From Candidatus Nomurabacteria bacterium (GTDB lineage Bacteria; Patescibacteriota; Minisyncoccia; Phycocordibacterales; UBA9973): DNA of 64,000 nucleotides. The notes below the pieces were generated by a model. The model did no database searches, was not told the DNA's origin, and worked only from the letters and a program-made list of their open reading frames with translations. Position numbers and translations under genes: made by a program. The stretch covers positions 345,375 through 409,374 of the forward strand of contig CP064958.1 of the NCBI GenBank assembly GCA_016699085.1. Reading direction: 5' to 3'. Below, one piece after another: positions 2,664-20,441 of this stretch. Position 1 is the stretch's first letter. Every line of letters begins with the position of its first letter.

Positions 2664-2677
2664 CAAACTTGCTATAT

Positions 2678-2768
2678 CTGGCAATTACTCGAACTCCTTT
2701 AATAATACGCCTTATTTATCAACAAGAACTGAATTTTGATTACTAGTATTTAGTTCGATTCCACGATG
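2678..2768 (+). repeat. island end-repeat A, copy 1 (~90 bp)
   Basis: ggcaaTtactcgaactcCTttaATaatacgccttatttatcaa ... tagttcgattcca aligns with copy 2 at 3872-3963; contains tRNA T-arm-like TAGTTCGATTCCA. Confidence 0.7.
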
Positions 2769-2786
2769 GTTTAATAATCTTAAATT

Positions 2787-3443
2787 ATGAAATGCTATTT
2801 ATGTTTAAAAGAAATAATGAATGAAAAAGTATCGAGGGATCACGTACCAGCGCGAAATATTTTTCCTGAACCAAAGCCATCAAACTTAATGACACTTCCA
2901 ACCCACTTAATATGTAACCAAGAGTATTCAGATGATGAGGAAATATTTAGGACTGATATTGTTTCAATAGCAGATATTGAAAATAATCCAAGCGCTAAAA
3001 ATGTCTGGGAAAAAGTAAAAAGAAGTCATGATAAAAATCCAAATAAACAAATAGAAATGTTTTCAAGGATTGAGTTTATTAATATAAAAGACCACAGAAT
3101 TCCTCAGCTGAAATTATCAGAAGAAAGAACAAAGAGAGTTATTACTAAAATAGCAAAAGGACTATATAATAAGCGCACAGGAAATTTTATAGATAATTTA
3201 TATGAAATAAAGATACATTTCCAACCAGTAGAATTTATACCTGATTTATTAAAAAAGCTCAATATAAAGGAACTTTCACTGATACTTTTTCCTATGCAGG
3301 CGCCGTCTCAAAAAGTGGGTCAATTTGGTGGATGGTTTTCTATAAACGAATTGCTGCTATTGTTAGTTTCTGGAATGAAGAGATGGAAAAGGAAACTCAA
3401 TCAGTCTAAGCTTGTGAAAATAATAATCTATTATAAAATTTGA
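2787..3443 (+). CDS. hypothetical protein with N-terminal HNH-like motif
   Basis: N-terminus MKCYLCLKEIMNEKVSRDHVPARNIFPE (C-x2-C ... DHVP, HNH ββα-Me-like) and THLICNQE; rest of the 218 aa unrecognised. Confidence 0.45.
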   Translation: MKCYLCLKEIMNEKVSRDHVPARNIFPEPKPSNLMTLPTHLICNQEYSDDEEIFRTDIVSIADIENNPSAKNVWEKVKRSHDKNPNKQIEMFSRIEFINIKDHRIPQLKLSEERTKRVITKIAKGLYNKRTGNFIDNLYEIKIHFQPVEFIPDLLKKLNIKELSLILFPMQAPSQKVGQFGGWFSINELLLLLVSGMKRWKRKLNQSKLVKIIIYYKI

Positions 3444-3458
3444 TATACTGGGTCTACT

Positions 3459-3782
3459 ATGCCAATGATAAATGTCGAATATGATAGTAATCTGGTTCCT
3501 GAACCGGATATTCAGTCCCTATCGGAAGCTATAAGGGATATTGTATCTAATGTTACAGGAATTGAAGATGTCTTTACATATGCGAATTCTGCAAGGATCA
3601 AAATTAAGATTGCTCCAATTGAAATTTTTGTCCGCATGACAGATAAGAAAATAAAAGACGAAGACGCTTTAGTGAATGACATCAAATTAAAGCTAAAGGA
3701 ATGGAAAGTAGCAAGTAATTTCCAATATCCTATTAATCTCACTTTAATACCTATGAATTGGAAGGTAGAAATAGGCATTTAA
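3459..3782 (+). CDS. hypothetical protein
   Basis: 107-aa ORF immediately downstream of the HNH-like ORF inside module 1 of the tRNA-Gly island. Confidence 0.4.
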   Translation: MPMINVEYDSNLVPEPDIQSLSEAIRDIVSNVTGIEDVFTYANSARIKIKIAPIEIFVRMTDKKIKDEDALVNDIKLKLKEWKVASNFQYPINLTLIPMNWKVEIGI

Positions 3783-3789
3783 TGTAAAG

Positions 3790-3852
3790 TAGGAATATGT
3801 ATATAAGCATCATATTTTTTCTGAAACACGGTTCGAACATCCTGCACGGTGG
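3790..3852 (+). repeat. island end-repeat B, copy 1
   Basis: gaaacacggttcgaacatcctgcacggtgg (3823-3852) is 30/30 identical to 4913-4942; upstream ~30 nt also similar; starts right after the stop of ORF 3459-3782. Confidence 0.75.
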
Positions 3853-3871
3853 TTGCACAAAGTTACCACTT

Positions 3872-3963
3872 ATGGCAAGTACTCGAACTCACTTATAAAA
3901 TAGCCTTATTTATCAAAAATAAATCACCAAGTAAATAAGATTCTTAGTTCGATTCCATAAGGG
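3872..3963 (+). repeat. island end-repeat A, copy 2
   Basis: aligns with 2678-2768 (~80% identity), same TACTCGAACTC ... CCTTATTTATCAA ... TAGTTCGATTCCA landmarks. Confidence 0.7.
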
Positions 3964-3993
3964 AATGTTTTGCTTGGTGTAACAAATAGTTAA

Positions 3994-4548
3994 ATGCAAT
4001 CAGACAAGCAAAAAGGAAAATTTCTATCAAAACTCCAGATTGTTTCTATGGAACAAAGAATTAAGGGGGCTTTAGAATATCATTTCTTTAGATATCAGAC
4101 TTTAGAAAAAGAGGGGCATCCTGTTGATTTGGCAGGCAATTTTAAGTCAGACAATGAACGGTCTGAAGCCGCCAGAAATGAAATTAAGTATGAATTAGCG
4201 GCATATCTTAATCAGTTAGGAGCTTTTTACCATTTCATTTGCTCTCAAGATGTTACACAACCCGTAGACCCTGATTTAAAAGAAACTTGGTATGATTTAC
4301 ATAAAAATGGGGTACTCCATTTTATGGACAATAAGTGGTCTGGACACCGTTCTGTAGATTGTCCCAAGAAAGAAGATAGTGATTCAGTCCACACACAAAT
4401 AATGTTTTTTGATGTTGGTGCAACTACTTGGAATGGCGAGCACTTTATGGTAAACATTCACGAGAAGTCCCTAGATCTTTGTGACCTGCATCCGAAAATT
4501 AAGAAATTTATAAACTGGGCTTTTAAGGAAATTAATAAAAAAGCCTGA
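3994..4548 (+). CDS. hypothetical protein
   Basis: 184-aa ORF, first gene of module 2; no recognisable domain. Confidence 0.4.
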   Translation: MQSDKQKGKFLSKLQIVSMEQRIKGALEYHFFRYQTLEKEGHPVDLAGNFKSDNERSEAARNEIKYELAAYLNQLGAFYHFICSQDVTQPVDPDLKETWYDLHKNGVLHFMDNKWSGHRSVDCPKKEDSDSVHTQIMFFDVGATTWNGEHFMVNIHEKSLDLCDLHPKIKKFINWAFKEINKKA

Positions 4549-4612
4549 GAATAGAAGGAATGATTGTATCTACAATCTTCATCTACAAGAAAACCAAATT
4601 TATTTACTACCG

Positions 4613-4882
4613 ATGAAGTACTTATTAATAATTCTATTGATTGCGGCTGGATTTTGGATTTTTCACAAAAAAGACGTTTGGGAAGGATTTTATTATCCAA
4701 ATGGTTGTTTAAGTTGTGCTGAAAACTATATCTATAGTCCAAAATTTGAAACAAAAGAGGAATGTTTTGATTGGGCAGATTCCATAAAAATTTCTAGAAA
4801 TAATCCCGACGATTTATTCGAATGTGGCTTAAACTGTAAATATAAAGATGGATTTAATGTTTGTGAGGAAACTGTAGATTAG
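4613..4882 (+). CDS. small Cys-rich membrane-anchored/secreted hypothetical protein
   Basis: N-terminal hydrophobic helix MKYLLIILLIAAGFWIF, six Cys in 89 aa. Confidence 0.4.
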   Translation: MKYLLIILLIAAGFWIFHKKDVWEGFYYPNGCLSCAENYIYSPKFETKEECFDWADSIKISRNNPDDLFECGLNCKYKDGFNVCEETVD

Positions 4883-4942
4883 GAATGTGGATGTATTCAT
4901 TATTTCTTGTTAGAAACACGGTTCGAACATCCTGCACGGTGG
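4879..4942 (+). repeat. island end-repeat B, copy 2
   Basis: 30-nt perfect match to 3823-3852 plus similar upstream flank; starts right after the stop of ORF 4613-4882. Confidence 0.75.
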
Positions 4943-4995
4943 TGCACATAAAACACTTGACCTGGATGTAAAGCATTCAGGTTTTAGTGTTTTAC

Positions 4996-5011
4996 TGCGG
5001 ATGGAGAATCG
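4996..5011 (-). repeat. inverted copy of tRNA-Gly 3' end (T-loop/acceptor fragment)
   Basis: tgcggatggagaatcg is the reverse complement of cgattctccatccgca, i.e. tRNA-Gly cgattctcccatcccgca minus 2 nt. Confidence 0.55.
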
Positions 5012-5094
5012 AAAGACGGAGGCCGCGAAGCCGTCCGAAGGACGTGGCCGAGTCGGGGTCGAGAAATTTTTATGCAATAAAAAATATTCGTGAC

Positions 5095-5136
5095 CGATTC
5101 TCCTCCGCCAAAGGTCGGACAAGCATCCCGCACAAA
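5095..5136 (+). repeat. direct copy of tRNA-Gly 3' end with 21-nt internal insertion (putative attR of the island)
   Basis: cgattctcc[tccgccaaaggtcggacaagc]atcccgcacaaa versus tRNA-Gly 2643-2669 cgattctcccatcccgcacaaa. Confidence 0.7.
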
Positions 5137-5330
5137 ATAAAAATTCCCTCGAAAGGGAATTTTTTACATGATTTTTCCTAAGAAATTAGAATGATGATTT
5201 TTGATAAATTGTTTCCGAATATAATAACGTCGGGCTTTTCTTCGAAAACAATTAATAATTGTAGGTTCTTTTCCATGCTAAGTAATTATTTCTCATACTA
5301 TACCACATCAATTAATTTTAAGCAAATAAA

Positions 5331-19130: not shown

Positions 19131-20441
19131 TCACTCTATCTTCTCGAAGCGGGCTACACTTCGTGCGTCCTTCGAAACTATAACTATCGTGTATATGCCT
19201 GTTGGCAAATCACCGATATCGAGCCTTACCTTAGAGCCAATTCCCACACTCGGTACAACAACTTGCTGTCCCAGTATATTGACGATCTTGATTTCGTCTA
19301 TATGGGTGACTACATCAACAGTAATTATATCGGTCGCAGGATTTGGGTATAGCTTTAGGGCCTGCACATTACGTATCTCATCTACAGCAGTAATTGTAAA
19401 CTCTGCTGTATCAAAGACATAAATGTCTACAAGGCCATTCCCGTTTATTGAGCCAATCATTGCATAGTACTTTTCCATGAAGGGTACTCCAACATCCTTG
19501 TATCCGATGCAACCATCGTCGTCGTAGGCTTTAAAAGTGCCATTAATTCCGATGTAATTTAGATTGCATGTTTCGACATCAATATCGTTAATACGATCAA
19601 TGACGCCAGTAATTAGCATTATACCTTTCCAGACATCAGTACTCAGCGCCCAGTGGCAGTCAATGAATGATTCAGATCCTACAGTGAGAATTCCCGTGCT
19701 TACGGTGAGATTTTCATCCATGAATTCGCCAACCAATATTGGTTGGTTAGATACGTTTGTGCGCACCTTAACCTTTCCTGGCTGGTATTGGGTCGGCAAT
19801 GTGATTTCCTCCCATATGTGACCCTCAACGCTGTACCTTTTCAGCTTTTCTTCGGGGAAGAAGATATTTTCTTCACCTTCCACAGTGTACAAGAAGCCAT
19901 CTATTACCATACCGGACTGCGTATTTAGAGTGGCCTGATTCCCAACGGGAATTACATTTCCCTCCAAATCGATTTCTACGATATGGTACACACTGTCTCC
20001 GTCAAAAGTTTTAAAATCACCAATGACGTACATTTTTTCCGGTGTTACGATTAGATCGTTTACTGGACCGTCTAAGATATATGGTGACGTCCAATGTTTT
20101 GTGGTGCCACTCATTTTTGCAAAATATTTGCAAGTGGAATTAATAAAATTTCCACCTACCCACCATGCATTGTTGAAGTAGGCACACACTTTTTTTTGAT
20201 CGCTTGATAAATCGACACCTTCTAATCCTGTGGTTGGAATAATTTGCTGCTGGTTTGCTGTCCAAAGAACTGCACCTGGTGTACCGCCAAACAAAAGAAG
20301 GGTATCTTTGTTTGCTGTGATTGATGAAGGAGCATTATTTGGCTCCCCTAATGCAAGGGGAAATTTCTGCGAAAATAATGTTTGTGCTGAAGCATTGATT
20401 GCTCCAACAAGAAGTATGAGCAATAAGGCTATATTTTTCAT
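19131..20441 (-). CDS. secreted protein with T9SS-type C-terminal sorting-domain-like tail
   Basis: signal peptide MKNIALLLILLVGAINASA; C-terminus LKLYPNPATDIITVDV ... ILGQQV ... LDIGDLPTGIYTIVIVSKDARSVARFEKIE matches the Por_Secre_tail pattern. Confidence 0.6.
   Translation of the reverse strand: MKNIALLLILLVGAINASAQTLFSQKFPLALGEPNNAPSSITANKDTLLLFGGTPGAVLWTANQQQIIPTTGLEGVDLSSDQKKVCAYFNNAWWVGGNFINSTCKYFAKMSGTTKHWTSPYILDGPVNDLIVTPEKMYVIGDFKTFDGDSVYHIVEIDLEGNVIPVGNQATLNTQSGMVIDGFLYTVEGEENIFFPEEKLKRYSVEGHIWEEITLPTQYQPGKVKVRTNVSNQPILVGEFMDENLTVSTGILTVGSESFIDCHWALSTDVWKGIMLITGVIDRINDIDVETCNLNYIGINGTFKAYDDDGCIGYKDVGVPFMEKYYAMIGSINGNGLVDIYVFDTAEFTITAVDEIRNVQALKLYPNPATDIITVDVVTHIDEIKIVNILGQQVVVPSVGIGSKVRLDIGDLPTGIYTIVIVSKDARSVARFEKIE

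Follow-up and report, generated by a model that had tools for sequence, protein, structure and literature searches.

Cis-mobilizable elements (CIMEs), defined in Streptococcus, where elements that are either integrative and conjugative (ICEs) or integrative and mobilizable (IMEs) accrete at the 3′ ends of tRNA genes, have conserved attachment (att)-like ends and no genes for integration or transfer; they derive from ICE or IME decay and are mobilized by the integrase of a related, functional element (PMC5704250). The tycheposon islands of Prochlorococcus are 10–20 kb long and encode a recombinase of the tyrosine or large serine type, often along with genes for replication (10.1101/2020.12.28.424599). 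We describe here a locus in a 64,000-nt stretch (the window) of the Candidatus Nomurabacteria contig CP064958.1, about 8% of the source contig, in which two modules with conserved ends and unrelated cargo follow a tRNA-Gly(UCC) gene. Their order, A1-ORF1-ORF2-B1 and then A2-ORF3-ORF4-B2 (A and B being the left and right ends, and ORF an open reading frame), is that given in a preliminary description of the same sequence, with the ORFs positioned as claimed. We read the modules as two integrase-less, CIME-like cargo cassettes that site-specific recombination, catalyzed in trans, placed at the extreme 3′ end of tRNA-Gly(UCC), and give this reading a probability of roughly 0.5.

The modules resemble CIMEs in their conserved att-like ends, in the lack of integration and transfer genes, and in their tandem arrangement at a tRNA 3′ end with an internal att-like junction between the units. 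They differ in size (1.1–1.2 kb, with two ORFs each), in their core of 5–7 nt, and in their host, a member of the candidate phyla radiation (CPR) with a genome of about 0.8 Mb. Whereas CIMEs have ICEs or IMEs as parents, no parent ICE, IME, or integrase was found for these cassettes in the collections searched (IMG/VR, GTDB, JGI, and phage and plasmid records). The likeness to tycheposons lies in cargo arrays beside tRNA genes of a streamlined genome, in successive integrations that push older material outward, and in scattered partial tRNA copies; here, in contrast, the modules carry no integrase or other recombinase and no replication gene, and the partial tRNA copy belongs to a separate, noncoding element.

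There is also a resemblance to integrons: the cassettes are short, their unrelated ORFs all point the same way, one short core recurs at the boundaries, a conserved site lies at the 3′ end, and the chromosomal platform is fixed. However, neither intI nor attI is present, a tRNA gene serves as the platform, a GTTRRRY core is lacking, and the 5′ end (A) of each cassette is conserved as well and may hold a promoter. Nor does B form an imperfect palindrome (fold z = +0.6 and −0.2) with the RYYYAAC...GTTRRRY of an attC site at a cassette 3′ end. A DDE transposon or miniature inverted-repeat transposable element was considered and rejected, there being no terminal inverted repeats (the module ends, AACTTGC... 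and ...GGTGGT, do not form an inverted pair) and no transposase, although GCACA could pass as a 5-bp duplication.

Layout of the Locus

The features of the island and of the sequence directly behind it are as follows.

2593–2664, + strand: tRNA-Gly(UCC) (ARAGORN and Rfam, 70.9 bits), the putative attB-like target, with T-loop GTTCGA at 2643 and terminal GCACA at 2661–2665
2661–2667, + strand: junction core J1, GCACAAA, at the boundary of tRNA end and A1; the same 5- to 7-mer occurs at 3855 and 4944
2668–2786, + strand: A1, left end of module 1, conserved with respect to A2
2787–3443, + strand: ORF1, HNH-like, frameshifted (Pfam, PHROG, tblastn)
3459–3782, + strand: ORF2, 107 aa, predicted tautomerase superfamily (AlphaFold2 [AF2] and Foldseek)
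3783–3854, + strand: B1, right end of module 1, with a 31-mer at 3823–3853, a palindromic GTTCGAAC, and a tRNA-end-like CATCCTGCAC
3855–3861, + strand: junction core J2, GCACAAA, putatively attP-like, at the B1/A2 boundary; seen also in Logan contig L129
3862–3993, + strand: A2, left end of module 2, conserved with respect to A1
3994–4548, + strand: ORF3, 184-aa ORFan (homology search, AF2)
4613–4882, + strand: ORF4, 89 aa (sequence inspection)
4873–4943, + strand: B2, right end of module 2, with the 31-mer at 4913–4943
4944–4948, + strand: junction core J3, GCACA, at the boundary of B2 and preexisting sequence (palindrome reconstruction)
4949–5136, + strand: small tRNA-trailing structured element, Gly type (fold z-score −4.75; covariance model 76.1 bits, E = 1e-22)
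5139–5164, no strand assigned: bidirectional intrinsic terminator, conserved in the relative and probably the original tRNA-Gly terminator

Insertion at the 3′ End of tRNA-Gly

The block at 2665–4943 (2,279 bp) is a genuine, compositionally foreign insertion. Its GC content of 0.325 is the lowest of all segments of that length in the window (mean 0.405, standard deviation 0.023). The closest relative found (L003, L004, and L005, comprising one NCBI metagenome-assembled genome [MAG] and two JGI contigs; MscL 89% identical) has the same gene order (NUDIX, UPF0102, a 151-aa protein, tRNA-Pro, MscL, tRNA-Arg, tRNA-Gly, terminator, a 147-aa gene, HU, and a TrmB-like regulator) without either module, and the distance from MscL to the next gene is 618 bp there, against 2,996 bp in the window. 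The tRNA-Gly genes of the window and L003 are identical over 76 nt, and the sequences flanking the insertion are 82–94% identical; since the nearest relative thus shares the flanks but lacks the modules, the 2.28 kb between them here are an insertion. This bears out the insertion at the tRNA-Gly 3′ end proposed in the preliminary description, the modules being variable among relatives at one and the same tRNA, which is the presence/absence polymorphism expected of islands and tycheposons. In L003–L005 the site is empty of modules, and tRNA-Gly is trailed there by a small element.

Conserved Ends and Junction Core

The A repeat starts within the last bases of tRNA-Gly. Its two copies are similar, as previously reported, although the identity is slightly lower than the 80% over about 90 bp first given: it is 76% in an ungapped alignment of 68 nt (2661–2728 and 3855–3922) and 73% across the 105 nt up to TTCCA. 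The conserved blocks TGGCAA, TACTCGAACTC, GCCTTATTTATCAA, and TTAGTTCGATTCCA have equal spacing in A1 and A2. In A1 a hairpin of 6 bp (TTGCTA/TGGCAA) is accompanied by the T-loop hexamer in both orientations, inverted (TCGAAC, 2689) and direct (GTTCGA, 2753), and by a weak promoter-like site (2678–2706). The B copies (3783–3853 and 4873–4943) are 82% identical over 71 nt, and the perfect 30-mer attributed to them is in fact a perfect 31-mer (3823–3853 and 4913–4943). Each B had been said to start at a stop codon; B1 does follow the ORF2 stop directly, but B2 overlaps the last three codons of ORF4. The B 30-mer occurs exactly twice in the 64 kb (0 expected from shuffles), as does an A 18-mer (0.14 expected), and A and B, found at this locus only, are not ordinary dispersed repeats of the window.

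The sequence GCACA(AA) recurs at every module boundary, namely at 2661 (tRNA/A1), 3855 (B1/A2), and 4944 (B2/downstream). Integrase-borne tRNA islands lie between the full tRNA and a partial direct repeat of it, tens of nt long; here the boundaries share, apart from the core, only a degenerate tRNA-end-like stretch in B (GTTCGA...CATCCTGCAC), and the better copy, of 9 + 13 nt at 5095–5136, is part of the older small element. T-loop-like hexamers (GTTCGA or TCGAAC) are enriched in the island, with eight found against 1.5 expected (P = 1e-4), and all eight fall in A or B at conserved positions. Each A has an inverted TCGAAC 23 nt past the core and a direct GTTCGA farther along; the core is flanked at J1 and J2 by hexamers inverted to each other, with spacings of 40 and 46 nt. 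The part of B directly upstream of the core, GGTTCGAAC...CATCCTGCAC, resembles in degenerate form the GTTCGATT...CATCCCGCAC of the tRNA, with a left half-site that is about 5–6 nt longer than in the tRNA. This geometry at J1 and J2 may be compatible with the large-serine-integrase type, an assignment in which we have low confidence.

Structured RNAs or terminators were rejected as the main explanation for the 31-mer: B does not fold more stably than shuffled sequence (z = +0.6 and −0.2), the z-scores of A and B together run from −1.4 to +0.6, and no terminator is called in B. In view of this lack of a stable fold and of a terminator, the perfect 31-mer is better explained as a candidate protein-binding site.

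The preliminary description had proposed looking for A and B in other genomes or metagenome bins of the lineage. A B 22-mer has no match in IMG/VR, GTDB representative genomes, or JGI metagenomes; an A two-block pattern has none in JGI metagenomes, and blastn of 2665–5136 against phage and plasmid records returned no match.

Cargo Proteins and the Search for a Recombinase

ORF1 has the CxxC...DH...N motif of HNH proteins (Pfam HNH_5, E = 0.048; PHROG HNH, E = 3e-4), and this weak match is the only one that Pfam, PHROGs, and PADLOC give for the four cargo ORFs. Comparison by tblastn with its sole homolog (P0121, 45% identical) places a frameshift at a poly-A run at about 3251–3256, the homologous C-terminal 50 residues continuing in another frame (3245–3394). 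Logan contig L001 carries the same sequence at this point; ORF1 is either a pseudogene or the product of a homopolymer error. P0121 itself (L006, 1878–2492) sits 1.7 kb downstream of a small element (L006, 54–210) whose sense arm copies a different tRNA end, GATTCCCCGTAGGGTCACCA.

The remaining cargo had been described as lacking recognizable function, which holds for ORF3 and ORF4 and not for ORF2. Structure prediction, proposed in the same description, gives ORF2 a two-repeat beta-alpha-beta tautomerase fold (MIF/4-OT/CHMI-like) with a predicted local distance difference test (pLDDT) score of 96.7; Foldseek matches the model to MIF, 4-OT, and CHMI structures in the PDB (E down to 6e-6), and a proline directly follows the initiator methionine. 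The ORF2 family is small (76 cluster representatives), and a sequence profile search of the PDB with it found nothing. For ORF3, the only homolog found is the same element in a second sequencing run, and the single-sequence AF2 model is unusable (pLDDT 43.7). ORF4 has a hydrophobic N-terminus and a cysteine-rich remainder, and no family match in Pfam, PHROGs, or PADLOC. The paired ORFs of the two modules are unrelated (no remote protein similarity between ORF1 and ORF3 or between ORF2 and ORF4), and an origin of the modules by duplication was rejected on this ground.

No recombinase domain was detected in the four cargo ORFs by Pfam, PHROGs, or PADLOC, and phmmer searches with XerD, gamma-delta resolvase, IS608 TnpA, and lambda Int matched no ORF of the window, whose ten integrase-sized ORFs all encode housekeeping proteins. 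In agreement with the preliminary description, neither the island nor the rest of the 64 kb encodes an integrase; because none is encoded nearby, the recombining enzyme would have to act in trans.

The Small Element and the Order of Events

Between the modules and the terminator lies the small structured element, which comprises a 5′ hairpin (4950–4994), an antisense copy of the tRNA 3′ end (4996–5013), a conserved two-hairpin core (5014–5094), and a split sense copy (5095–5136). The antisense copy, TGCGGATGGAGAATCGAA, is the inverted fragment noted before. The sense copy is interrupted, as had been seen, by an insert that is 20 nt long rather than 21: CGATTCTCC at 5095–5103 is separated by 5104–5123 from CATCCCGCACAAA at 5124–5136. 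The preliminary description had taken this displaced copy for the attR of the island, an interpretation that fails with the module-free relative, in which the same inverted and direct arrangement is present: tRNA-Gly is followed by a 197-nt segment with a hairpin, an inverted GTGGAGAATCGAA, and the tRNA 3′ end copied perfectly over 22 nt, and then by the terminator found in the window.

The small element is older than the modules and is not their attR. When the last 17 nt of the tRNA are joined to the sequence that follows GCACA after B2, the product matches the reverse complement of 4986–5015 at 27 of 30 positions; the present end of B2 matches it solely to the right of GCACA. Because the modules split this palindrome of about 30 nt, formed by the tRNA end, the hairpin, and the antisense copy, between CCC and GCACA, they arrived after the small element.

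A second case of cargo in the same position occurs in a Saccharibacteria MAG (L082, 4384–6994, minus strand), where 2.4 kb of unrelated sequence lies between tRNA-Gly(UCC) and a small element. It encodes a ribbon-helix-helix protein, a 293-aa membrane protein, and a 158-aa protein, with no integrase, and its right end, GGTTCGAACGTC...CCCGCACA, resembles the GGTTCGAACATC...GCACA of B.

A Structured Element Trailing tRNA Genes in Patescibacteria

Further copies of the small element are located as follows.

2447–2549, + strand: second small element of the window, after tRNA-Arg(CCG), with the same architecture and a 19-nt direct repeat, GATTCCTGTCGAAGGCACA
L001, 263–378; L003, 4569–4677 and 7505–7701: further small elements
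among L009–L128: about 50 more loci

The tRNA-Arg element is 103 nt long, its direct repeat lies at 2428–2446 and 2531–2549, and it is missing from the relative; its covariance model match is weak (14.6 bits) because the arms are Arg-specific. The tRNA-Gly(GCC) gene, found just upstream of the window (L001) and in the relative, shows the same arrangement as tRNA-Gly(UCC). A scan of GTDB species representatives with the 3′ 25-mer of tRNA-Gly(UCC) gave at least 120 Patescibacteria loci; those listed include Saccharibacteria, Paceibacterota, and Kaiser-, Yonath-, Adler-, and Nomurabacteria, and about a quarter to a third of the matches listed have an inverted fragment 30–80 nt, and a direct copy 100–200 nt, past the tRNA.

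A covariance model built from 19 copies finds 48 copies at 25 bits or more in 100 loci. All copies that adjoin a detected tRNA are on its strand, and the tRNA is Gly(UCC, GCC, or CCC), Pro(UGG), or Arg(UCG); the match mostly starts 0–50 nt after the tRNA, with tandem second copies some 160–215 nt downstream, and most copies repeat at least 12–24 nt of the tRNA 3′ end. Covariation supports the fold: 93.8% of cells are paired, against 77.5% in shuffles and 30–51% in slid controls, double-sided changes number 127 against 36 in shuffles, and pairing in helices 1 and 2 is kept in 93–94% of cells. Because G-U pairs exceed A-C mismatches (35 to 11, about 3:1), the tRNA-sense strand is the strand that folds.

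Rfam gives only noise besides tRNAs in the window (E ≤ 5) and only noise for a canonical copy (E ≤ 10), and at the gathering score Rfam 15 finds only tRNAs in 16 element-bearing loci. The core patterns of three subtypes have no match in 2.9 million viral contigs. In the literature searched there is no description of the small element or of such cassettes in Patescibacteria; the group I introns reported in CPR tRNA genes (PMC13011429) lie in the anticodon loop and are a different thing.

The small elements of the window and the relative, at the same site, are only 52–57% identical, so that they diverge faster than their flanks (82–94%), and each is 65–77% identical to copies in distant phyla; from these figures horizontal turnover or replacement of the family appears to fit better than simple inheritance. 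In L118, L061, L013, L046, L037, and L074, two or more small elements stand in tandem, each ending in a tRNA 3′ copy, and L037 has five copies behind four different tRNAs within 8 kb. In L031 (minus strand, 175–610 nt past tRNA-Gly) an insert of about 400 nt lies between two copies of the 3′ part of the element, each of them split again by an insert of about 34 nt.

It is a tentative suggestion, and one we hold to be less likely than not, that the small element belongs to a previously undescribed class of structured nucleic acids specific to Patescibacteria tRNA genes, either a miniature mobile element or a tRNA-mimic RNA. As a mobile element, its folded single strand may rebuild its own tRNA target, providing an integron-like or IMEX-like platform that would capture cargo, such as the two modules and the 2.4-kb block of L082, between the tRNA and the element. 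As a co-transcribed tRNA mimic, its antisense arm may pair with either the tRNA 3′ end or the decoy copy, switching tRNA maturation.

The attP of CTX phage and of integrative mobile elements exploiting Xer (IMEXs) folds into a hairpin, and integron attC sites recombine as a folded bottom strand. The sense-antisense-spacer-sense order of the small element is what folded integration of either the CTX/IMEX or the attC type would leave. Like these phages and IMEXs, it has inverted and direct copies of the target around a spacer, able to pair into a hairpin that rebuilds the double-stranded target, and it forms tandem arrays. In contrast, its target is the T-loop-to-3′-end part of a tRNA and not dif, its spacer is a covarying two-hairpin core, and no involvement of XerCD, replication protein, or single-stranded replicative form is known for it; the ratio of G-U to A-C is no less compatible with an RNA transcript than with single-stranded DNA. 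With the tRNA-like RNAs (the tRNA-like domain of tmRNA, YrlA/Y RNA, mascRNA, and viral tRNA-like structures) it shares an acceptor-stem-like helix on a T-stem-like helix and a 3′ strand identical to that of a real tRNA. It differs from them in that an extended helix with a branched domain replaces the T-loop and one hairpin stands in for both the D and the anticodon arm, part of the 5′ acceptor strand is often missing, the element is always beside the tRNA it copies, and it has no Rfam match.

Integration Model and Alternatives

If the modules were added by site-specific recombination, the attP-like site of a cassette would be the B/GCACA(AA)/A junction, preserved at 3855, and the attB-like site would be the T-arm of the tRNA with the 3′ strand of the acceptor ending in GCACA. 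Exchange within GCACA would then give tRNA/A1 (attL-like) and B2/flank (attR-like) junctions. The internal B1/A2 junction may reflect either integration of a second cassette into the att site of the first (accretion) or a single integration of a two-unit circle, and the inverted GTTCGA/TCGAAC hexamers around the core at J1 and J2 are candidate protein-binding sites. The preinsertion site would have been tRNA-Gly joined directly to GCACATAAAACAC and the small element; that is, the cassettes would have landed in a locus that already held the small element with its tRNA 3′-end copy, unrelated to the cassette ends. Of the repeated site-specific integration of conserved-end cassettes put forward in the preliminary description, the insertion and the unrelated cargo between conserved ends therefore stand and the attR does not; the recombination itself, with its chemistry, trans-acting enzyme, and circular intermediate, is what we infer.

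Several points weigh against this model. The shared core is just 5–7 nt, and the sequence to its left differs (CATCCC in the tRNA, GGTGGT in B), which is unusual for core sites of tyrosine recombinases. No circular junction was seen, nor any recombinase in the 64-kb window. Part of the conservation of A could be regulatory, given the weak promoter-like site in A1 and A2. The cassette system is known from one genome, and reuse of the A and B ends with other cargo is unproven. Precise loss of the modules from the relative, instead of gain here, is a formal alternative.

A single 2.3-kb element may instead have been gained once by homologous or illegitimate recombination, for example after DNA uptake, with A and B as repeated regulatory regions (promoter/5′UTR and 3′UTR) and GCACA as coincidental microhomology; we consider this unlikely. 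CPR bacteria are thought to take up DNA, and the window encodes a type II secretion system (T2SS)/type IV pilus protein F. Each A lies directly upstream of an ORF in the same orientation and each B after a stop codon, an arrangement between operons that recalls T4-type phages, in which ORFans are shuffled by promoter-stem-loop cassettes, and A1 and A2 share a weak sigma-70-like site at the same place (2678–2706 and 3872–3901); such sites, however, are no commoner than in shuffles, and B has no terminator. The absence of a recombinase from the 64 kb and of A and B from other collections, which leaves reuse unproven, would also suit a single gain. On the other hand, coincidence fits poorly with an insertion that is exact to the last bases of the tRNA, with one pentamer bounding both modules and the whole block, and with T-loop hexamers that are enriched and symmetric about the core, as it does with the unrelated L082 cargo that occupies the same position and has a similar right end.

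Distinctly less probable is the original proposal that 2665–5136 is one integrated array with its attR in the tRNA 3′ end at 5095–5136, or its CTX-phage-like variant, in which a folded single-stranded circle carried the modules. The order of tRNA, cargo, inverted copy, spacer, and direct copy is the expected remnant of CTX-type integration, and L082 shows the same order with cargo; but the relative has the inverted and direct copies without cargo, and some 48 strong model matches in other genomes are likewise cargo-free, with the exception of L082. The low identity of the two small elements (52–57%) between flanks that are 82–94% identical could mean that they are independent integrants. Against a common arrival with the modules, the left arm of the element palindrome extends as far as the tRNA end, the modules breaking it at GCACA, and a single array leaves the boundary repeat at the internal B1/A2 junction unexplained.

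A mis-join or collapse of the assembly at the B repeat is very improbable: although the B 31-mer is exactly where Logan contigs from short reads end, and the B2/downstream junction is seen in no independent contig, the tRNA-to-B1 (L001), B1/A2 (L129), and A2-to-B2 (L002) segments are each reproduced in independent contigs from two sequencing runs, the flanking gene order agrees with that of the relative, and contigs are expected to end at a 31-nt repeat in a k = 31 graph. Contig L129 (run SRR11673986) differs from window positions 3824–4942 only by five single-base deletions in A/T homopolymers, which look like sequencing or assembly errors rather than strain variation. It has the B 31-mer at both ends, and its interpretation as a circle was rejected, the same pattern being expected of a unitig between two copies of a repeat.

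Chromosomal Context

The first 5.2 kb of the window contain tRNA-Pro (1797–1874), MscL (2025–2369), and tRNA-Arg(CCG) (2373–2445) ahead of tRNA-Gly(UCC) (2593–2664); the remainder is core chromosome, encoding trigger factor, NusA, PGK, TIM, EF-Tu, ribosomal proteins, and the T2SS/pilus F protein. The functional tRNA-Pro gene is flanked by perfect 24-bp inverted repeats (1754–1777 and 1883–1906) and nested in a degenerate outer tRNA-Pro copy, whose 5′ half (1629–1754) has two insertions and whose 3′ part lies at 1945–1975. This region (1629–1975; L003, 6575–6930) has a fold z-score of −7, with 94% conservation in the relative, and has the look of an older tRNA-Pro whose anticodon loop received an insertion carrying a tRNA. 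Two copies of the 14-mer CCGCCANNGGTCGG lie in the window, at 1641–1654 and 5105–5118 (0.01 expected, one mismatch allowed), in each case as the core of an insert of about 20 nt that splits a copy of a tRNA fragment, in the 5′ half of the outer tRNA-Pro and in the direct copy of the tRNA-Gly 3′ end; in L031, L082, and L100 the direct copy is likewise interrupted by short inserts. A 436-aa protein (19131–20441, minus strand) has a Por_Secre_tail domain (E = 5.6e-11), the C-terminal sorting signal of the type IX secretion system, which is unexpected in a Nomurabacteria genome.

Implications for CPR Bacteria

Genomes of the CPR, or Patescibacteria, are tiny, and the ways in which genes enter them are little known. 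The locus offers a clean before-and-after view of genes gained at the 3′ end of a tRNA through units without a recombinase, and the gain of such units would imply a trans-acting integration system in these organisms. The duplicates of tRNA ends beside CPR tRNA genes are not simple attR scars and form part of a conserved, covarying element of about 100–200 nt, absent from Rfam, which trails tRNA-Gly, tRNA-Pro, and tRNA-Arg genes in many lineages and turns over faster than its flanks. The nature of this element, whether mobile DNA, a tRNA-mimic RNA, or both, bears on programs that call islands and att sites from partial tRNA repeats. We would flag the tRNA-trailing element, rather than the cassettes, as the more novel object at the locus. 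Should either reading of it be true, no cargo units would have been observed on this platform before the A/B cassettes.

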